This document shows positions 36,685 through 48,522 of a DNA stretch of 64,000 nt, piece after piece. The number at the start of each line of letters is the position of its first letter. Position 1 is the stretch's first letter. Below the pieces are notes generated by a model. That model had not been told where the DNA came from, did not search any database, and was given only the letters and a program-made list of their open reading frames with translations. The position numbers were made by a program, and so were the translations under genes. The stretch is from an uncultured cyanobacterium. Lineage in GTDB: Bacteria > Cyanobacteriota > Cyanobacteriia > Cyanobacteriales > CAWUOF01. The DNA lies in NCBI GenBank assembly GCA_963744145.1, contig CAVUSO010000001.1, positions 992,001-1,056,000 of the forward strand, given 5' to 3'.

Positions 36685-38178
36685 TTAACGGATTTTAACT
36701 AGATGTATAGCTGGCTGGTTTCGCACTATAGTTGGTTCTATATTTTGAAATCCACTTTTGATAAAGGCTCGAATTGATGATTGATTTTCTGGCTTTATGT
36801 AAGCATGAATTTTAGTTATTTCCCCACTATGAAAAAGTTTTTCCGATGCTAGCTGAATTAAAATAATTCCATAGCCATGACCACGAAAATGGCGATCTAT
36901 GCTCAGAGAAACGATCGCTTCATTTTGGTTAATATCATAACGAATTTGACCGACAGGAATATCTTGGTGATTCAGGGCAATATACATAATACAGCTAGGT
37001 TGTGTCAGCTTTTCTTGGAACCATTTAATATGATCTTCCCAAGAAATAGGTTCTGAGGAAAAGGAAACGGCACGCACCTCTGGCTCATTTGCCCATTCCC
37101 AAATCAATTTACTATCATCAGCATCAACTAAGCGAAATTTTAATAATTTGTTTTCTAGATGTTTCAAAACTCGCTTACTTCCTTTACCATCCACTAGCTT
37201 TTGATTTTGTCTGCTTATTTCTATCCGTTGTTCTAGTGTTGTTTGTAATTGGGTGGATACAACTGCGGCTATTTGCTCCATCGAAATATCTTCATGCCAG
37301 CCTAAATTAATGGTTATTCCTATTTCATTTAATTTTTCAGCGATCGCTCGTTGGTTATCAGCCAAAATTAGCATTAAACTCGGTAAACCCATAAAAGCTA
37401 ATTCCCAACAAGTCGATCCACCAGCAGCGATCGCCAGATCAGCCCAAGCCATTAATTCAGGCATATTTCGGACATTATTTTTCAGAGAAATTGGAAACCG
37501 TGACTCTTGTGCAAACAAGCGTAAGTGATCACCGTGGGGATTGTTTCCTCCCACCACAACTATTGCTTCCAGCCCATTTATTTCTACTTGCTGTAATCCT
37601 TGTAGGACTTTAAGCGTTACATTATCGCGATCGCTACCACCTAAAGTAACTAAAATTTTGTGAGCGATCGGCGATATTTTCCGGTGCCATCCCAACCAGG
37701 GCCAAAATTCCTGCCGTAATAGGGTATAGCGAGTTCCTAATAATAGTTGAGTATGAGGTTCTCGGTTCACGTATAAATTTTCATTGGCATAGATATTCTG
37801 ATTTAAAATCAGGTCTGCACAGTAGGATTGTGCGTGTCCGTAATCATCAAGAAACAAAAGATATAATCCAGCTTTTTTGATAATTCGCTGATACTCAGCT
37901 CCAAAATGATAACCATCTACAACAATCCAGCTTGCTGCTACCTGCCGTGCTAAATCTATGGTTTGAATTGCATCTTCAATACTACCTGGTTGAGCTAATA
38001 GATGCACAATTTCCATTCCCTGCGATCGCAAACGTTCAGCTAGTGCTGATGCAACCACATCCATCACAAAAATTGCTTGCCGTCTAGCTTTTTGCCAAAC
38101 CTGAGCCAAAGCTAAACACCGCATCAGGTGACCTGTGCCAATTTGAAGAGAAGCATCTGTCCGAATAATGATTTTCAC
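36685..38178 (-). CDS. pseG: PseG hydrolase fused to GNAT acetyltransferase
   Basis: RTDASLQIGTGHLMRCLALA, VVDGY and AGGSTCWE; C-terminal GNAT with WANEPEVR...FRGHGYG...N..S..AF.K.GF. Confidence 0.88.
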   Translation of the reverse strand: MKIIIRTDASLQIGTGHLMRCLALAQVWQKARRQAIFVMDVVASALAERLRSQGMEIVHLLAQPGSIEDAIQTIDLARQVAASWIVVDGYHFGAEYQRIIKKAGLYLLFLDDYGHAQSYCADLILNQNIYANENLYVNREPHTQLLLGTRYTLLRQEFWPWLGWHRKISPIAHKILVTLGGSDRDNVTLKVLQGLQQVEINGLEAIVVVGGNNPHGDHLRLFAQESRFPISLKNNVRNMPELMAWADLAIAAGGSTCWELAFMGLPSLMLILADNQRAIAEKLNEIGITINLGWHEDISMEQIAAVVSTQLQTTLEQRIEISRQNQKLVDGKGSKRVLKHLENKLLKFRLVDADDSKLIWEWANEPEVRAVSFSSEPISWEDHIKWFQEKLTQPSCIMYIALNHQDIPVGQIRYDINQNEAIVSLSIDRHFRGHGYGIILIQLASEKLFHSGEITKIHAYIKPENQSSIRAFIKSGFQNIEPTIVRNQPAIHLVKIR

Positions 38179-38218
38179 AAGTCAATTTGAGAATGTTTCT
38201 ATTATTAATCTTTACCAA

Positions 38219-38977
38219 CTACAGCCGTACATTTATATTATGTTTTTTGAGAAAACGCTTGGCTTCTAAGGGAGTTTGCTCAGTAAAATGAAACATACTG
38301 GCTGCGGCAACAGCGGATGCGTGACCATCAATTAATGCTGCTGCCATGTGTTCGTAATTACCCGCACCACCAGAGGCAATAACGGGAATAGAAACAGCAT
38401 TACTTACGCATTTTATTAACTCGATATCGTAGCCATTCATCGTTCCATCTAAGTCAATTGATGTGAGGAGAATTTCTCCAGCTCCGAGGGATTCAACCTC
38501 CTTAGCTAAAATTACTGGATCTTTACCAGTAGGCTGTTTACCTGAATGGGTAAACACTTCATAGGTGCCATTAGGTAATTTTTTTGCATCAATTGAAACT
38601 ACCACACATTGAGAGCCGAATTGCTGGGCTACTGACTGAATTAGTTCTGGTGTAGATAACGCTGCTGAGTTAATAGCAACTTTATCAGCACCAACTTGCA
38701 AAAGTTTTCGTACATCTGCAACTGTTTGGATACCACCACCTACAGTTAAAGGCATAAAACATTCATCAGCAATTTCATCAACGGTTTCAAAATCAGGGGA
38801 ACGTCTCTCATTGGTAGCGCTAATATCAAGGAAAATTAACTCATCAACTTCCCGCATATTATAAACTTTGATCGCTTGCATCAGACTACCTATCCGTCGC
38901 CAGCTATCAAAACTTATCCCCTTGACTAAACCAAAATTTTTGAACAATAAAGTTGGCATTACACGGACTTTAAGCAT
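38219..38977 (-). CDS. HisF-like ammonia-tunnel subunit (WbuZ/HisF2)
   Basis: VDELIFLDI, PLTVGGG, SIDLDGTMNG and IASGGAG motifs; glycan-cluster context. Confidence 0.88.
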   Translation of the reverse strand: MLKVRVMPTLLFKNFGLVKGISFDSWRRIGSLMQAIKVYNMREVDELIFLDISATNERRSPDFETVDEIADECFMPLTVGGGIQTVADVRKLLQVGADKVAINSAALSTPELIQSVAQQFGSQCVVVSIDAKKLPNGTYEVFTHSGKQPTGKDPVILAKEVESLGAGEILLTSIDLDGTMNGYDIELIKCVSNAVSIPVIASGGAGNYEHMAAALIDGHASAVAAASMFHFTEQTPLEAKRFLKKHNINVRL

Positions 38978-38989
38978 ATTAGCTACATC

Positions 38990-39607
38990 CTAAAGGGCAA
39001 GAAAATTTTTGAGGAGTTGAAATCCTAACTTCTGGCTTTTTTCCGGATGAAATTGAACTCCGAAAATATTATTTCTCCTTATTGCTGAAGCAAAACCACC
39101 ACAATAAGAGGTAGAAGCGATCACTTCCTGCTGATGATTGCAGGAAAAATGGTAGCTGTGGACAAAATAAAAATCTTTACCAGAAGGAATATTTTGAAAC
39201 AAAGGTGAGGGCTGGTTGAAGATAACTTCATTCCAGCCGACGTGAGGAATACGCACATCAGGATGGTTAGATTCTAGTCGTTTTACTTCTCCATCAATCC
39301 AACCTAAACCTTCAGTTTCTCCACCTTCCCAACCTTTGCTAGCAAGTAGTTGCATCCCTAAACAAATCCCGAGAAAGGGAATGTTTTTTTCGAGAACTTG
39401 TTCTCGTAATATATCTTCTAAGCCATAACTACGAATATTTTTCATCCCGATGGGAAATGCACCCACTCCGGGCATAATTATGTAGTTTGCTAGTTCAAAA
39501 TCACGAGCTTCACGGGTAATCACTGCATCACATCCACATTCCTGAACAGCACGAGCTACAGAATCTAAATTACCCATTCCATAATCCGCGATCGCAACTT
39601 TCTTCAT
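38990..39607 (-). CDS. HisH-like glutaminase (WbuY/HisH2)
   Basis: GICLGMQ, PHVGWN, YFVHSY and QFHPEKS motifs. Confidence 0.9.
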   Translation of the reverse strand: MKKVAIADYGMGNLDSVARAVQECGCDAVITREARDFELANYIIMPGVGAFPIGMKNIRSYGLEDILREQVLEKNIPFLGICLGMQLLASKGWEGGETEGLGWIDGEVKRLESNHPDVRIPHVGWNEVIFNQPSPLFQNIPSGKDFYFVHSYHFSCNHQQEVIASTSYCGGFASAIRRNNIFGVQFHPEKSQKLGFQLLKNFLAL

Positions 39608-39609
39608 AG

Positions 39610-40824
39610 TTATACCTGCAAAATTTTGGCTGTTTTTGAGTTCCCCTGCATATCGGGTTTAGGCTCTGAACCAATTAAGTTGTCATAATTAATTTTCGTT
39701 AGATTCCCCTGTTTGTCTTTGACTAAATTACCTCGGCTATCACAGACAAACAACTTCTTGTTAGTAAAGCGATCGCAGATTTTGATGAACTCTTCCACAG
39801 TCATATCAATCTCCTTGAGAATCTCTTCCAGGGGACATCCTAAATAACTCCAAGGAAATTTGCCATCGTGGATTTTAACTAGGTTAACAGCATCTTTTCG
39901 GTAAAGCCGTCCGCGCCGAATATGTAAGCAAGCTAAGTCCGTGGCTCGTCCAAAGCCGTATTTGAGAAATTTGAAGTAATCATGTATTCCTGTATGACAG
40001 TTATCTAAGTTTTCGTAGTTAACTAAGGAACCTTCAATTGTCTTGTGATAAGTTTCAAAACCATGTGCTTGAGCATAAAGAGCATTGTGATAGCCATCCC
40101 AAGGTAGATAGTAACCCAAAAATAGCCCTGTTACTCCCACTTTTTCCAATTCTTGATCAGAAGGATATCGATACTGAATCAGGTCTTTTGCTTCAATCCC
40201 ATCCTGTCCAATCAAATCAGAAACTCTCAAACCTAAAAGTCCACCGAACTCTTCTAACCATCTGCGGGTGAGTGTATTGTTTTTTGCCGCACCAGCCGGA
40301 CCACCATACTCGTGCTGCGGGTTTTCTCCCCAGATAATCAGCGGAATATTGAGTTGTACGGCCAGCCTAACAGGTATAGTAAATATAGTTACATGTTCTG
40401 GCCAAGAAATATCTCCAACTTGAGTTAGTGTCAGACGGTTAATTTTTCGGCGTACTATGGAATTAGTTGTGACCTCAATGTAGTCTACTCCAAGATTTTT
40501 GAGATTTTCAATATTACGCCGTCCAATTTCAGACAATTTATCTGTTGTGGCGGTAATACATAGTGGATTCATCCCCATTTCTAGGATTTTTAAGACCTGG
40601 TAATGGCTGTCTTTACCACCGCTAACAGGGATAATACAGTCATAGTTACTGCCATCTTTAGAACGGTAACGATCTAGAATACTAAACAATTCTTCTTTGC
40701 GTAAATCCCAGTCAACCGCTTGCCGTTTTTCAAAATAGTAACAAGCGCTACAAACCCCATTCTCATGAATCAATAAATCCGGTTTTGTTTCTGGCATCAC
40801 ACAGCAAGTACAGTACCTAATCAT
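39610..40824 (-). CDS. N-acetyl sugar amidotransferase (WbuX/PseA-like)
   Basis: YCTCCVMP.T.P, PP-loop SGGKDS and KYGFGRAT motifs. Confidence 0.9.
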   Translation of the reverse strand: MIRYCTCCVMPETKPDLLIHENGVCSACYYFEKRQAVDWDLRKEELFSILDRYRSKDGSNYDCIIPVSGGKDSHYQVLKILEMGMNPLCITATTDKLSEIGRRNIENLKNLGVDYIEVTTNSIVRRKINRLTLTQVGDISWPEHVTIFTIPVRLAVQLNIPLIIWGENPQHEYGGPAGAAKNNTLTRRWLEEFGGLLGLRVSDLIGQDGIEAKDLIQYRYPSDQELEKVGVTGLFLGYYLPWDGYHNALYAQAHGFETYHKTIEGSLVNYENLDNCHTGIHDYFKFLKYGFGRATDLACLHIRRGRLYRKDAVNLVKIHDGKFPWSYLGCPLEEILKEIDMTVEEFIKICDRFTNKKLFVCDSRGNLVKDKQGNLTKINYDNLIGSEPKPDMQGNSKTAKILQV

Positions 40825-40851
40825 TAGTAAAACTCCTTTATTGGTAAAAAA

Positions 40852-41466
40852 TTAAACCGTCTTTTCTAACAAAATCCAAGTTGTGTTATCCCAAGCTGGA
40901 CTCATCCGCTGCCACAGAAAGCCATAATCGATTACTATCACTTTGTCTCTGTGCTGTTCCATCAACTCACCAGCAAAGTCACGCTTAAAAAGCTTGTCGG
41001 TATATCCTCGATAATTAATCTCGACCGGAACAGGATTGTAATATTCGTTGAGCAAGATGTACCGCGAGGAAATATCATATATTTTCTGATAAATTAGCGG
41101 CAAATCTTGAGGATTAATGTGAATTAAAACACCACAAGTAAAAACTAAATCAAATTTTTTTTCTGGGTTAAAGTCCTGAATAGATGATTGGACTGATTGC
41201 ACTCCTGGGATTGTCTCTAATTGAGCGATCGCTGTTGGATTTAATTCTACTCCTGTTAGTTGAAAATTAGAGCTGAGTTGGGCGATCGCCTGGAGATTAT
41301 GACCTCGGTTTGCTCCTAACTCACAAATTGTCTTAACTCCATAAGTTTTGGCTAAAACCTGGGCGAAAAATGGTTGACGTTGCTCAGGTAAAATCTGATT
41401 TCGGCTTGTATATTCCGTCCCAAAATTGCCTTGCCAAAACAATTCTTGCTCGGTTTTATTTCTCAT
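40852..41466 (-). CDS. pseudaminic-acid-associated methyltransferase
   Basis: TEQELFWQGNFGTEY, ELGANRG.NL, GVLIHINP and YRG..DKLFKRDFAG motifs. Confidence 0.85.
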   Translation of the reverse strand: MRNKTEQELFWQGNFGTEYTSRNQILPEQRQPFFAQVLAKTYGVKTICELGANRGHNLQAIAQLSSNFQLTGVELNPTAIAQLETIPGVQSVQSSIQDFNPEKKFDLVFTCGVLIHINPQDLPLIYQKIYDISSRYILLNEYYNPVPVEINYRGYTDKLFKRDFAGELMEQHRDKVIVIDYGFLWQRMSPAWDNTTWILLEKTV

Positions 41467-41482
41467 GTCTGGTTCCCAACTA

Positions 41483-42226
41483 TTAACCTAATTTTTTCTG
41501 TTGAACGTGAGCGTTAATTTTTACCAGCTCTGATTTTTCTTTGAGAAGTGTTAAAACTTCATCAGTTTTAAAAATCTCTCCATCTTTGGACAAAGCAGAG
41601 TAAATTTCTTGAATTAACTGCCAATCCTCTTCGGTATCTAGAGTCCAACGGTAATTGGAGATATTTTTTTGATTGGTATATTCTTGTAAAGTGAAAAAAT
41701 CAGGATGCTGATAGATGTAAGGAGTGACATGCTCTTTTTCGTAAGGCTGATGAGCTTCCTTAACAGCCCGTTCTAATGCTTTAAAAGTAAATACCTCAGC
41801 GTCTAACCCGATTGGGTAAGTCCGATTTAAAGTATTACTCAGGTAATCAATTTTTAGTCCTGCAACTGTAGTAGTTTTGAAATAATACAACATTTGCGAT
41901 AGAACTTCTGGATCAAAGAGAGGACAATCAGAGGTAATTCTGACAATAATCTCTGCCTGAAATTGTTGAGCTGCCAAATAATAGCGTTCTAACACATTTT
42001 CTTCACTACCGCGAAACCATTTTACTCCGCATTTCTCAGCCTCGATGACAATGAGATCATCTCCCAATGAGGTCGTGGTAGCAACAATAACTTCATCGAG
42101 CAACAAACAAGATTTAACTCGTGAGATTACATGAGCCAGAACGGTTTTGTCACCAAGAAGTTTCATTACCTTACCAGGTAAGCGAGTAGACCCCATCCGA
42201 GCTTGAATAATGGCAACTATCCTCAT
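41483..42226 (-). CDS. cytidylyltransferase (SpsF/PseF role)
   Basis: IIQARMGSTRLPGKV, RITSDCP, EHVTPYI and RWTLDT.ED motifs. Confidence 0.87.
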   Translation of the reverse strand: MRIVAIIQARMGSTRLPGKVMKLLGDKTVLAHVISRVKSCLLLDEVIVATTTSLGDDLIVIEAEKCGVKWFRGSEENVLERYYLAAQQFQAEIIVRITSDCPLFDPEVLSQMLYYFKTTTVAGLKIDYLSNTLNRTYPIGLDAEVFTFKALERAVKEAHQPYEKEHVTPYIYQHPDFFTLQEYTNQKNISNYRWTLDTEEDWQLIQEIYSALSKDGEIFKTDEVLTLLKEKSELVKINAHVQQKKLG

Positions 42227-42574
42227 AAATGTATCTATTATTCTGTCTCCATTACTTTAGTTTTTGTTCCCAGATATTTCTGATATTTTCCCAAGTTAAC
42301 GATGGTCATATTAATCGAAGTATCTAGAGAAATAACTAGGTTTAACAACTACAAATTCTTGGTTTTCTATGAATAGTTACAGGTCTAAATTTCAGAGATC
42401 CGGATTTTCAGGTAAAAGATCTTACTGATTTAGGATTTACGCAGACTTAACCTAATTCTGTCCTCGGTGTTAATGTAGCTTGATGAAGCGTTAGTGAAAT
42501 TATGCCCGGGATCTTAGCCAGATTTTGAATTTCGCGATCGCGCTAATATTTTTACCAATTGAGTATTTATTCAA

Positions 42575-44742
<2,168 letters not shown>

Positions 44743-45161: not shown

Positions 45162-46511
45162 TTAAAAAGGTAGATCGTCATATTCATTTTCTTGCGACTC
45201 AGTGGTAGCTGATGCTAATGGTTGGGTCGCGATCGCTGCTTGATTTTGCTCTGGTTCTCTTTTAGTGATTAAACTCCATCGGGTAGTTGCTTCGACTTGT
45301 GGTGCTATTTTCCCGATCGCATTTCCTAATTTTTCTTGAATTTCTTTAGTCAAAGTCACGGGAAATTTTAACTCTATTCTTTTGGATAGGGTTAATTCCG
45401 CTAATTGGGAAAACTTTACTTTTAAGCTGGGGGAATTAGCTAGTTTAAAATTAGGCGAATTTTCTAAATCTTGGACTTGCATTGCTTTTTTTACGCGCTC
45501 TTTTAAATAAGTAAATTCTGTGTCTAGTAATTTCCATTGAGACTCAATTTCTTGATAGCGTTCATTTAGCTGACTTAAGTCTTCAGGTATCAAAATATAG
45601 TGATTTTTTCGAGGTGATTTTTGCCGATTTTGCACAGTTAATCTCCAAGTTGGGATTTCAGCAATTTCTAAGCTCGGATCATTGATAAATCGTCCTAATT
45701 GTTTTTGAATGTCTTTAGTCAGAGTAATCCAAAAATCTAATTCTATCCCCTCTGTATAGGTTAACTGAGCAAGTTGGGAAAAATCTACTTTCAAACTGAC
45801 AGAACTAGATAAGTGAAAATGGTTGTATTTTTCTAGCTCTTGTGTTTGCATTATTTCTTTAATTTTTTCTTTTATCTGACTTATTTCTACATCTAGTGGT
45901 TGCCATTCAGATTCGATTTTTTGGTATTTTTCTGTTAATAATGTTAAATCTTCCGTGACTGGATCAAAGCTAATCTGCTCAGTTAATTTTCGTAAAAGCT
46001 GATCTACTTGAACTAGATATATTACATCCATTTTGGCATATTGTAGCTGTTTGTCGGTCAGCAGACGTTGCCCCCAATTTCCGGTCTGTTCACTTTTATC
46101 TACGGATAGATTACAAAGACTTTTGACTAATGTTTTTAGTTGATAATTAGGTACGGGCAGAAGGTAATAAGGAATATTCTTAGCCATTTCTAAGGTACAG
46201 GTGACATTTTTAGCTTGATCATCTCCTAAAAATTTTAGGTCATATTTAGCATTATGAAAAACTTTCTCAATCCGGGAATTGACCATAATCTGGCTAATAA
46301 AAAATTGGCTCAATTCTGGTTGATCTAAAACGTCAAAAATATAAACGCGATCGCCAGTTAAATCTCGGTAATCAGCCGTAACCTGAATTAAAGATAATTG
46401 GGGATTTTCAGTATTAAAGTCTGCTATTTCTGTATCTACCCACAGGGTTTTGGCAGAAGCAAGTTTAGCAATTTGTCCTCGAATCTGACTGGATACTGTT
46501 AAATAAGGCAT
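45162..46511 (-). CDS. RNase D-like DEDDy 3'-5' exonuclease with duplicated C-terminal module
   Basis: ExoI WVDTE, ExoII FHNAKYD and ExoIII YAKMD motifs; two ~110-aa repeats; ends YDDLPF. Confidence 0.87.
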   Translation of the reverse strand: MPYLTVSSQIRGQIAKLASAKTLWVDTEIADFNTENPQLSLIQVTADYRDLTGDRVYIFDVLDQPELSQFFISQIMVNSRIEKVFHNAKYDLKFLGDDQAKNVTCTLEMAKNIPYYLLPVPNYQLKTLVKSLCNLSVDKSEQTGNWGQRLLTDKQLQYAKMDVIYLVQVDQLLRKLTEQISFDPVTEDLTLLTEKYQKIESEWQPLDVEISQIKEKIKEIMQTQELEKYNHFHLSSSVSLKVDFSQLAQLTYTEGIELDFWITLTKDIQKQLGRFINDPSLEIAEIPTWRLTVQNRQKSPRKNHYILIPEDLSQLNERYQEIESQWKLLDTEFTYLKERVKKAMQVQDLENSPNFKLANSPSLKVKFSQLAELTLSKRIELKFPVTLTKEIQEKLGNAIGKIAPQVEATTRWSLITKREPEQNQAAIATQPLASATTESQENEYDDLPF

Positions 46512-46827
46512 GGGCAAAGTCTCTTAATTATTAGAAGAATAAGTGCATATTTTGATGCTATCTAAGATGATTTTAACATAAATTTTAAGTAAACTTAAGA
46601 AAAATGGACATTGATGCTGTCTGATGCTCACCTATTGTCATCCAGTTTAGCGATCGGATAAAATAGTTCTAATCGACAACGGGCTCAATAGGCTGAAGTT
46701 AAAACGGTAAGACTAGCAGAACGTTGACGATCGCTGGACTCCTGCTCAAGAACTGTCCAACCCTGGGAGAAAAATTAATGATCAGGATCAATATACTTCT
46801 AGTTTTCCATCGATAAATGGAGTAAAT

Positions 46828-47412
46828 ATGACATCAAAACAAGAGCTGCAAAATACTTTAAAAGAAAAGTATGGTATTAATAAAAACATCAGTCAAAGCC
46901 TAAGTCAAGAGGAGTGTGAAAGATTGTTATTTATTCTGAGTACAGAACCGAGTGCTATCAAAATCGTCGATTCCTTTGTCGATAAAAATTCGAGTTTAGG
47001 TAAAAATAATGCTCTCTTTGGTAAAATGCGTAATCAAGCTGAGAAAAAGTTAGAAACTTTAAAATCTGAATATTATGAATTAGAACAGACTATTCAAGGT
47101 ATAGAAACTGATAAACTAGCCCTTGAAGAGAAAAAGAAACAATTAGAACAAGAGCGATTTAAGCTTGAATCGGAAGTAAAGGGTTTAGCTACGGAAATCA
47201 CTACTTTAGAAACTAAAGTCAAAAAATTAAACTATGAAAATACTGAATTATTCGGAGCTAATCAACAGCTACAAAAAGACAACAAAGATTTAAAAAACTT
47301 AGTTGATCGGATCAGACTTCAATTGGCACAAAACACTAAACAACTTTTACAGTATGAGGATAGTGAAATTAGGAAAGCTTTAGTTAAGTTATTCAAATGG
47401 ACATTAGGTTGA
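46828..47412 (+). CDS. coiled-coil hypothetical protein
   Basis: GGAG RBS; long heptad E/K/L-rich stretch. Confidence 0.85.
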   Translation: MTSKQELQNTLKEKYGINKNISQSLSQEECERLLFILSTEPSAIKIVDSFVDKNSSLGKNNALFGKMRNQAEKKLETLKSEYYELEQTIQGIETDKLALEEKKKQLEQERFKLESEVKGLATEITTLETKVKKLNYENTELFGANQQLQKDNKDLKNLVDRIRLQLAQNTKQLLQYEDSEIRKALVKLFKWTLG

Positions 47413-47423
47413 GAAATTGAGAA

Positions 47424-47810
47424 ATGTCAAGCAAAAAAAAGCAACCAATCAAGTTTAAGGGTATGAGTTACCGTCAAGTTCAGCGATTTAACTCGAATAA
47501 TAAGAAGCATCTAGAACCGGAAGATAAAAAATGGCTAAAAGATAACTTTTATAAAAATATAGGATGGCAAAATGTGATTAATCTGTACCAGAAAATTGAG
47601 GAATTTTTAGATAAGTATAAATTTGCCGATTTTACTCTCGAAGAGTTATTTTTAGAAGCAGATAGAATTGGTAATAAATATCTTACTCAGGAGGAAATCG
47701 CACAATATAATCAACAACTGTCACAAATAGTTAGTGAAATTTCTGAAGAAATTGATCAACAATTTCCCGATACAGAAATCGAAATTATCGATTTTGGTAA
47801 ACAAAAGTAA
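47424..47810 (+). CDS. hypothetical protein (basic N-terminus, acidic C-terminus)
   Basis: ORF starts 11 nt after the previous stop. Confidence 0.8.
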   Translation: MSSKKKQPIKFKGMSYRQVQRFNSNNKKHLEPEDKKWLKDNFYKNIGWQNVINLYQKIEEFLDKYKFADFTLEELFLEADRIGNKYLTQEEIAQYNQQLSQIVSEISEEIDQQFPDTEIEIIDFGKQK

Positions 47811-47825
47811 AATTCAAGTTAATCA

Positions 47826-48296
47826 TTGGCAGAAATTATGGAAATTGAAAATAACCCTCTAGAAGAACTATTTATTCAAGCTGATCAAATTGGTAAAAAA
47901 CGTTATCATCGGCTAACTACAAAAGATTTTGAGAATTATCGAAAATTTGAATTTTGGCGATATATTAATGGTGATAGTGAATGTGGAACAACTCAAGCAA
48001 GTAAGGATTGGGTAAAGGATAATTCTGAGTGGTACTGTCCGATTTGTGGTGAAAAATATTCCCATAGGTTAGGTAAAACAATTGATCATAAATTACCCCG
48101 ATCTCAATATCCCTGGCTCTCTATGGATTTTAATAATTTATGGGTTATTTGCCAAATCTGCAATCAAGAAAAGTCTGATATGCACTGGTATGAATATGAA
48201 CATTATATGTTTACTAAGCATCCTGAATTATACTTAGATGTAAAAGCGATGCGTCCGATTCAATTGCTCAAGTCCCTCAAACAATCATCTAGCTAA
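47826..48296 (+). CDS. HNH endonuclease
   Basis: CPICG...TIDHKLPRS...NNLWVICQICNQEK; start may be ATG 47838. Confidence 0.88.
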   Translation: MAEIMEIENNPLEELFIQADQIGKKRYHRLTTKDFENYRKFEFWRYINGDSECGTTQASKDWVKDNSEWYCPICGEKYSHRLGKTIDHKLPRSQYPWLSMDFNNLWVICQICNQEKSDMHWYEYEHYMFTKHPELYLDVKAMRPIQLLKSLKQSSS

Positions 48297-48318: not shown

Positions 48319-48522
48319 CAATACGGTTCGTTTAAGGATATTTTGGGAGATATCGACGAATAAGGGTGAAGCATTCGGATCTAATATTACTCCCCTTCGA
48401 CTCCGCCCTTCGACCCCTTCGACTACGCTCAGGGCAAGGCTCAGGGTAAACTCAGGGTGAAGTTTGAGCTGATAAATTATCGCTAAACATGCTTCACCCC
48501 TACAATTAACCGAACCGTATTG
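48319..48522. mobile_element. MITE (204 bp) with 10-bp target duplication and nested short repeats
   Basis: TIRs CAATACGGTTCG.TTAA / TTAACCGAACCGTATTG; flanks GCTCAGGATT / GCTCAGAATT (9/10). Confidence 0.87.

Follow-up and report, generated by a model that had tools for sequence, protein, structure and literature searches.

A three-gene nuclease module of cyanobacteria, apparently undescribed, with a shared helix that is copied by phages and plasmid-like elements

The three genes at positions 46828 to 48296 of the window (the whole stretch of 64,000 nt that was analysed) form a real and conserved module, apparently undescribed, that is accompanied by a rich set of probable counter-defence proteins. 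We consider it likely that the trio is a defence system in which ORF1 is the receptor and helices encoded by mobile elements are decoys, a statement that holds for both the competition and the bridging readings discussed below. The defence function is one that we infer mainly from the helix copies of phages and plasmids. In its fuller form, a proposal toward which we lean with some reserve, the trio represents an ATPase-free nuclease defence family that is run by paralogous helices competing for one coiled-coil dock; at least four subtypes appear to have re-coded the dock, and the family would be countered by widespread phage and plasmid decoys, including virion-protein fusions and two-subtype proteins.

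The trio consists of three co-oriented ORFs with a GC content of 30-33%, compared with 39.4% for the chromosome, and the coordinates confirm those of an earlier reading of the sequence alone (the sequence-only reading), which had described three co-oriented AT-rich genes. The features of the locus are as follows:

46828..47412, plus strand: ORF1, 194 aa, with only compositional coiled-coil matches in Pfam, NCBIfam and PADLOC scans
47272..47352, plus strand: residues 149-175 of ORF1, where the shared helix is predicted to dock (model interface, to which both dimer copies contribute)
47424..47810, plus strand: ORF2, 128 aa, a basic three-helix N-terminal domain followed by a C-terminal helical hairpin
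47637..47681, plus strand: shared helix as present in ORF2, L-x-E-L-F-x-x-A-D-x-I-G-x-K-Y, the form that recurs in phage and plasmid proteins
47838..48296, plus strand: ORF3, HNH endonuclease, 152 aa, Pfam HNH E 1.9e-7, alternative start TTG at 47826
47859..47906, plus strand: N-terminal HNH copy of the shared helix (helix 8-21), in which a single residue is inserted ahead of the conserved Tyr
48036..48173, plus strand: HNH core with zinc ligands C67, C70, C105 and C108, and D83-H84, N100, N109 and K112

The sequence-only reading had placed gaps of 11 and 15 nt between the genes. Its ORF positions stand but the 15-nt gap does not, since alignment with homologues indicates that the HNH gene most likely starts at the ATG at 47838 (152 aa, 27-nt gap) rather than at the TTG at 47826. 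Each gene is single-copy in the 7.7-Mb genome, and the flanking genes, one RNase D-like and the other psbA, are on the opposite strand. A promoter scan returned 8 sites versus 7.7 expected. Between the HNH gene and psbA, at 48319-48522, is an element of about 200 nt with 17-nt inverted repeats at its ends and short internal repeats; it is represented by 437 BLAST pieces in the genome, 31 of them at least 150 nt in length, and looks like a miniature mobile repeat. The RNase D-like 3'-5' exonuclease gene (45162-46517, minus strand) encodes a C-terminal extension with what looks like an internal duplication and with a weak match to DUF7307 (Pam3 gp33-like, E 0.001). Further along, a cluster on the minus strand (36685-44727) with hisF/hisH-like genes and an N-acetyl sugar amidotransferase gene is presumably for pseudaminic-acid-type sugar synthesis.

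ORF1 is comprised of a small, swappable N-terminal helical domain, a long coiled coil of variable length and a conserved C-terminal segment, and profile scans with Pfam, NCBIfam and PADLOC found no ATPase domain in the protein. The N-terminal domain occurs in two unrelated forms, and the C-terminal 60 residues are retained in both. Within the predicted docking site, N152, L155, K156, D160 and L164 are invariant in 63/63 homologues, and the docking segment has a dN/dS of 0.044 (close pairs pooled, and hence non-independent), which indicates strong constraint. ORF3 scores 31.5 bits against the Pfam HNH cut-off of 21.4 and has the features of the HNH endonuclease superfamily. Its zinc ligands, D83-H84, N100, N109 and K112 are all invariant among the 63 homologues, and the nuclease site is thus intact. 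The fold of ORF3 is closest to the HNH domains of Cas9, Cap5 and McrA, with none reaching E<=0.001.

No family or solved relative of ORF2 was found in Pfam, NCBIfam, PADLOC, the ESM Atlas, the PDB or fold searches. Neither ORF1 nor ORF2 reached a curated cut-off in Pfam and NCBIfam, the ESM Atlas returned only unnamed cyanobacterial clusters, and PDB sequence searches for solved relatives gave only compositional coiled-coil matches. The best hit in the ORF2 fold search had a Z of 5.5 among PDB representatives, with nothing at E<=0.001 in BFVD; a likeness of the ORF2 hairpin to NblA (Z about 5, 2% identity) was not significant and was rejected. The window ORF2 is without the basic C-terminal tail of approximately 15-19 residues that most homologues have. 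A single-sequence word search, which is weak evidence, found no fusion of ORF2 to other domains at E<=0.001 among proteins of 225-2000 aa, and a later profile search found long proteins with the C-terminal half of ORF2.

ORF2 and the HNH protein are related through the shared helix. As the sequence-only reading had noticed, the 14-mers at 47637 and 47859 are identical at 10 of 14 positions, and this is above chance, as high a score being obtained in 0.1% of 2000 shuffles; at the DNA level, identity between them is 77% across 44 nt. The motif is conserved in homologues as well, with 6-10 of 14 positions identical between the two proteins over 79 loci (mean 8.3) and the window at the top of this range. 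The ORF2 motif has a dN/dS of 0.059 versus 0.231 for the whole of ORF2. Residues L11, G19 and Y23 of the HNH motif are invariant in 63/63 homologues, and the dN/dS of this motif is 0.171 versus 0.159 for the rest of the HNH protein. The HNH motif is therefore under no extra constraint, and this, together with its one-residue insertion, counts against the explanation that we favor. A paired-alignment covariation analysis between proteins over 79 loci returned only variable columns and no usable signal.

Co-occurrence of the genes, one of three points on which the sequence-only reading had said that its idea could fail, held up, as did the other two, conservation of the motif in homologues and the lack of a catalogued system that the trio matches beyond the HNH core. 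ORF1 matches (E<=1e-6) identified 11 carriers among 301 genomes of the phylum, and strong ORF2 and HNH matches fell in the same 11 genomes, where the genes are adjacent and their order is kept in 11/11. A scan of species genomes gave 136 ORF2 relatives, the best 80 of which were used for linkage; in these, ORF1 was present at 80/80 loci and an HNH gene adjoined at 79/80 (an automatic filter had given ORF1 in 79; ORF1 is present at L071, where it overlaps ORF2). Loci were also surveyed for decay. Over 129 distinct loci, in a count that left out L161 and L184 and is biased in that the loci came from ORF2-based queries, 117 were intact, 4 had a broken HNH gene, 1 lacked the HNH gene, 1 had a shortened ORF1, 5 were cut by contig ends and 1 was a stand-alone motif gene. 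A broken ORF2 beside an intact HNH gene was seen at 0/129 loci. At L096 (6449-7836) the start of the HNH gene is present on both sides of a stretch of N, which probably reflects misassembly, and P0237 joins the N-terminal part of ORF1 to the C-terminal half of ORF2, probably as a deletion product.

Weaker matches keep the layout of coiled coil, small protein and HNH, and they represent subtypes B, C and D. Types B and C share the N-terminal domain of ORF2 (approximately residues 11-66) with type A, and since comparison of the type A ORF1 profile with those of B and C was not significant, they are tied to type A through this domain only. Type D matches in the N-terminal 80 aa of ORF1 (probability 96%, E 1.4e-9) but has a different ORF2, whose N-domain shows a weak likeness to a helix-turn-helix of the excisionase type (Pfam DUF3173, E 0.036). 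The common helix is located at both C-termini in type B, and in the C-terminal part of ORF2 and the N-terminus of the HNH protein in type D, with sequences in both types that differ from that of type A. Sharing of the helix by ORF2 and HNH passed a shuffle test (p<=0.015) at 6 of 14 distant loci (L018, L031, L036, L039, L217 and L218) and was not significant at the other 8, including all 3 type C loci; given these numbers, the helix-sharing principle is only suggestive outside type A. At L018 the best alignment of ORF2 and HNH extends past the helix. The HNH-like proteins of the type C loci (L012, L013 and L015) have lost the zinc cysteines and kept the His, Asn, Asn and Lys, and all three genes at these loci end near a K-x-K-Y-like motif. 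At L037 (1300-2184, minus strand), a small HNH frame has upstream of it a gene for a short protein that bears the alternative form of the ORF1 N-terminal domain, and no ORF2 homologue was detected; this locus is possibly a further subtype.

The trio is found at unrelated chromosomal sites and on plasmids, with flanks that vary by lineage and a patchy spread. One type A copy is plasmid-borne, type B is common on plasmids (5 records), and one type B copy sits after a type I restriction system. A neighbour scan (93 of 152 extracted, picked to avoid repeats) revealed mostly housekeeping genes, together with some toxin-antitoxin (Phd, PIN, MazF, Fic), XisH/I and NB-ARC genes, in a tally that stands without a control set. 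That the neighbours are mostly housekeeping genes, which do not suggest defence islands, counts against the explanation that we favor. No terminase was present among the 93 scanned neighbours, and ORF2 queries did not detect the trio in phage records or viral contigs. The idea of a terminase small subunit or terminase-associated HNH module was dropped as there was no terminase context. At L007 (758-1468), ORF1 opens with the first residues of a XisI gene, and XisI/XisH flank several other loci. L065 (3166-4965) is the only scanned locus with a co-oriented SMC_N/AAA_23 ATPase gene directly upstream of the trio.

Copies of the helix are also found in mobile elements. Among 50,697 phage records, ORF2 had a single match, to a 57-aa protein that is encoded by Leptolyngbya phage Lbo402-yong5 (OR994056.1, WYD66234.1); the match spans exactly the motif at E 0.03, and an ORF2-motif profile gives 8e-9. 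When applied to 152,527 segments from this phage and the genome of the window, the profile listed only ORF2, the HNH gene and the phage gene. Viral and metagenome contigs yielded four more lineages, which consist of a 121-aa motif gene among Mu-like head genes (L137), a 44-57-aa motif gene beside tail genes (L140/L144/L149-151), a 1939-aa motif protein (L147) and a motif gene beside a head-morphogenesis gene (L161). A genome search located a motif gene in a prophage-like stretch (L221), and plasmid-like contigs carry motif genes beside ParA-like or actin-like genes (L220, L254). In each of the 8 independent contexts that could be read for the motif outside the trio, the setting is that of a phage, a prophage-like stretch or a plasmid-like contig, and none of the 8 showed an adjacent homologue of ORF1 or HNH.

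Searching 1.84 billion representatives with the motif profile gave 128 matches, which pattern rules sorted into 25 ORF2s, 6 ORF2 fragments, 12 HNHs or fragments, 42 proteins of 70 aa or less, 28 of 71-230 aa and 15 longer ones. The motif is present in 14 of the 15 proteins of more than 230 aa, and among these long proteins are three phage portals and one DarB-like methyltransferase-helicase of 2420 aa (PHROG label). Several stand-alone motif proteins continue into the downstream segment of ORF2, which suggests capture from ORF2 and points to mobile elements having taken the motif from that gene. The net charge is -5 or lower in 36 of the 42 small motif proteins, and in 41/41 (one ORF2 fragment dropped) the ORF2 motif outscores the HNH motif; genomic context was read for a minority of these approximately 40 proteins. 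A profile of the small proteins had matches in 38/401 genomes of the order. The 30 loci and 4 regions inspected were all trio genes except for L206/L220 and L221, and the loci inspected from the 401 genomes yielded no motif-bearing core host protein. Neither the 57-aa phage protein nor P0201 had relatives on viral contigs. Matches at L138, L141, L142, L143, L184, L255 and P0229 were set aside as chance. In one group (P0147, P0192, P0203, P0244, P0171, P0184 and L161 2309-2830) a hydrophobic tail, possibly membrane-bound, comes after the motif, and two cases have a small domain before the motif that by eye looks like SAP/HeH. Another group (P0127, P0160, P0198, P0235 and P0249) has two tandem motif copies, one of them partial in some.

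Three proteins carry the type A motif at the start and a type B helix at the end. The type B helix scores 45.5 bits in P0201, 38.1 in P0219 and 19.6 in P0168, compared with 13.6 for the best of 2720 shuffles; P0174 failed as a dual protein at 6.2 bits. A profile of all four proteins matched 52 places in 51/301 genomes of the class, such that roughly one sampled genome in six had a matched type A or B locus. Inspection of 38 of the 52 places identified 31 type A trios, 5 type B trios (matched through the C-terminal half of the profile, the type A trios being matched through the other half), 1 stand-alone gene and 1 chance match. Helix fusions that draw on two different host loci are hard to explain other than as products of selection against both.

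The sequence-only reading had proposed that the helix is a docking element on the ORF1 coiled coil, and a controlled complex prediction with the phage copy backs this idea. With two copies of ORF1, the HNH protein and a 44-aa phage protein as the scored partner, the phage protein was placed on the C-terminal coiled coil of the ORF1 dimer with a score of 0.72 in three runs (contact agreement at least 87%, partner pLDDT at least 79). The best of 3 controls reached 0.21; replacing ORF1 while keeping the HNH protein gave 0.00, and unrelated partners gave 0.21 and 0.00. The mark was reached by 116/157 solved complexes and 2/215 mismatched pairs, a calibration that is only roughly valid here given a four-chain layout unlike it, custom alignments and 3 controls. 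The score is that of the phage peptide only, not of the HNH protein or ORF2, in a cross-species pair. The modelled interface places peptide residues L7, F8, A11, I14, G15 and Y18 against ORF1 149-175 (N152, L155, K156), with contacts that fall on residues invariant on both sides. The model supports binding of the helix to the ORF1 dimer. We infer that ORF2 and the HNH protein use the same ORF1 groove, and a shared groove would account for their helices staying similar.

How might such a trio work? We picture a compact, horizontally spread nuclease system aimed at mobile DNA, in which ORF1 would form a coiled-coil dimer with its conserved C-terminal segment as the predicted docking groove, and ORF2 and the HNH protein would bear paralogous helices that fit this groove, as modelled for the phage copy. 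DNA cleavage would require the HNH protein to be docked on ORF1, probably in pairs, and ORF2 would exclude it by filling the groove. Upon infection or DNA entry, ORF2 may be lost or displaced by some cue, whereupon the HNH protein would dock and degrade DNA. Phages and plasmid-like elements appear to have captured the ORF2 helix repeatedly, either as proteins of 45-70 aa or in portal, DarB-like and other large virion-type fusions, and the captured helix would stably replace ORF2 in the groove, which would thereby stay blocked. DarB of phage P1 is a virion-delivered antirestriction protein, and the copies on plasmid-like contigs and in the DarB-like protein suggest that the system responds to DNA entering the cell and not to a single phage protein. 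This competition mechanism, with ORF2 as inhibitor and the HNH protein activated by docking on ORF1, is a tentative choice to which we give somewhat less than an even chance. We favor it over bridging because the decoys copy ORF2 and because only the HNH gene decays.

In the bridging mechanism, which we regard as rather unlikely, the ORF1 dimer holds one ORF2 and one HNH protein at two grooves (2:1:1), the basic N-domain of ORF2 recognises DNA or acts as a sensor and so directs or activates the nuclease, and phage and plasmid helices without that N-domain are dominant-negative decoys. The linkage, decoy and docking evidence is equally available to bridging, and subtype D swaps the ORF2 N-domain for the one weakly like an excisionase-type helix-turn-helix. 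Decoys on plasmid-like contigs and in the DarB-like protein suggest incoming DNA as the target here too, and the accessible text on Lamassu describes a comparable A1B2C1 layout with an HTH-like specificity factor, LmuC (PMC12663957). Bridging alone, however, leaves unexplained both the HNH-only decay (from the biased count) and the copying of the ORF2 version by 41/41 small decoys, and the ORF2 N-domain has no significant fold match. Competition and bridging both make the decoys inhibitory. The reverse would apply if ORF1 kept the HNH protein inactive, as LmuB does LmuA, and any incoming helix protein displaced and activated the nuclease, the phage proteins being triggers with another job. The docking model is equally compatible with displacement, and the Lamassu effector is proposed, in the accessible text, to be activated on release from the coiled-coil complex (PMC12663957). 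Many unrelated elements nevertheless keep genes for little more than the helix, several with the ORF2 downstream segment, and some carry helices for two subtypes, which would be self-destructive for a trigger; moreover, no second host target was found in the 152,527 segments or through the matches in 38/401 genomes of the order. A guard of this sort thus seems to us improbable.

It is also conceivable, with a probability that we put lower still, that the trio is a selfish tripartite toxin-antitoxin or addiction module with no role in defence, and that mobile elements carry the helix just in order to tolerate or displace it. Its presence on plasmids and at variable sites, in some cases beside Phd, PIN, MazF or Fic genes, would suit such a module, as would the loss of the toxin-like gene (HNH lost or broken at 5/129 loci). 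On the other hand, an addiction module hardly accounts for phages fusing the helix to portal or DarB-like proteins, and most type A loci are among housekeeping genes. The acidity of the small proteins (36/42 with a net charge of -5 or lower) raises the idea that they are DNA mimics that act on the HNH active site, or that they bind an unrelated host protein, with the ORF1 interface being an artefact, and models can spuriously lay helices along coiled coils. We hold this to be highly improbable, as the score fell to 0.00 when ORF1 was replaced and the HNH protein was present, unrelated partners scored 0.21 and 0.00, and the contacts involve residues invariant on both sides.

The trio as a whole matches nothing in PADLOC 2023, Pfam, NCBIfam or the PDB, and PADLOC matches nothing beyond the HNH core, in keeping with the earlier view that the trio is unlike catalogued systems. 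Septu PtuB and PADLOC PDC-M01B profiles match the HNH core (E 1e-9 to 2e-12), as each has a small zinc-binding HNH, but the matches cover approximately 55-85 residues of models of 210-300 positions and are confined to the core. Partner models of PDC-M01 or Septu did not match ORF1 or ORF2 of types A-D. PtuA is an ATPase, and no adjacent PtuA-type ATPase or reverse transcriptase, as in Septu or retrons, was present in the flanks of the trio or conserved among the 93 scanned neighbours. Tripartite type II toxin-antitoxin loci such as PasABC and omega-epsilon-zeta likewise have three small linked genes. ORF2 resembles an antitoxin in layout (N-terminal folded domain, C-terminal binding helices) and the toxin gene is the one lost, but there is no family match, the third gene encodes a long coiled-coil receptor, and the toxin carries its partner's helix. 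The system that the trio works most like is Lamassu, but the trio is without the ATPase and so is not a member. In LmuABC, according to the accessible text, the coiled coils of a dimer carry the nuclease effector together with a small partner (A1B2C1), and no docking helix shared by LmuA and LmuC is described there (PMC12663957). The likeness is in the three components, with docking in the trio modelled for the phage helix copy only. LmuB is an SMC/SbcC-type ATPase, whereas ORF1 has 194 aa without an ATPase domain and gives only short coiled-coil matches with LmuB models (E>=0.002); no ATPase gene is a conserved neighbour of the trio among the 93 scanned, the lone SMC_N gene at L065 being non-recurrent.

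Capture of a host module by phage has precedents. T4 Dmd, which acts against RnlAB, is a phage orphan antitoxin. AdfN, an orphan antitoxin against DarTG1, is described in the accessible text as a case of a phage capturing the neutralising part of a host defence module (PMC11825919). The captured part in the present case differs in being a helix of 25-45 aa that is predicted to bind the scaffold rather than the toxin, and in taking the form of mini-proteins, virion-protein fusions and two-subtype hybrids. We found no description of the trio in the literature, including by five protein accessions and the phage name, in a search with supplements and most subscription journals outside its scope; the trio may be listed as an unvalidated candidate in supplements or in current DefenseFinder models. 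The accessible text of the DefensePredictor paper has no mention of cyanobacteria (PMC13092281).

The broad logic of a nuclease, an inhibitor and a phage copy of the inhibitor is known already; what would be new is a shared-helix scaffold switch, which was not found in the literature searched. A defence system, its control switch and the counter-defence would be brought together in three genes within 1.5 kb and decoys of 44-84 aa, with one decoy in a cultured Leptolyngbya phage and an interface predicted at the residue level. A search of mobile elements for copies of a host motif is thus one way to uncover defence systems located away from defence islands.
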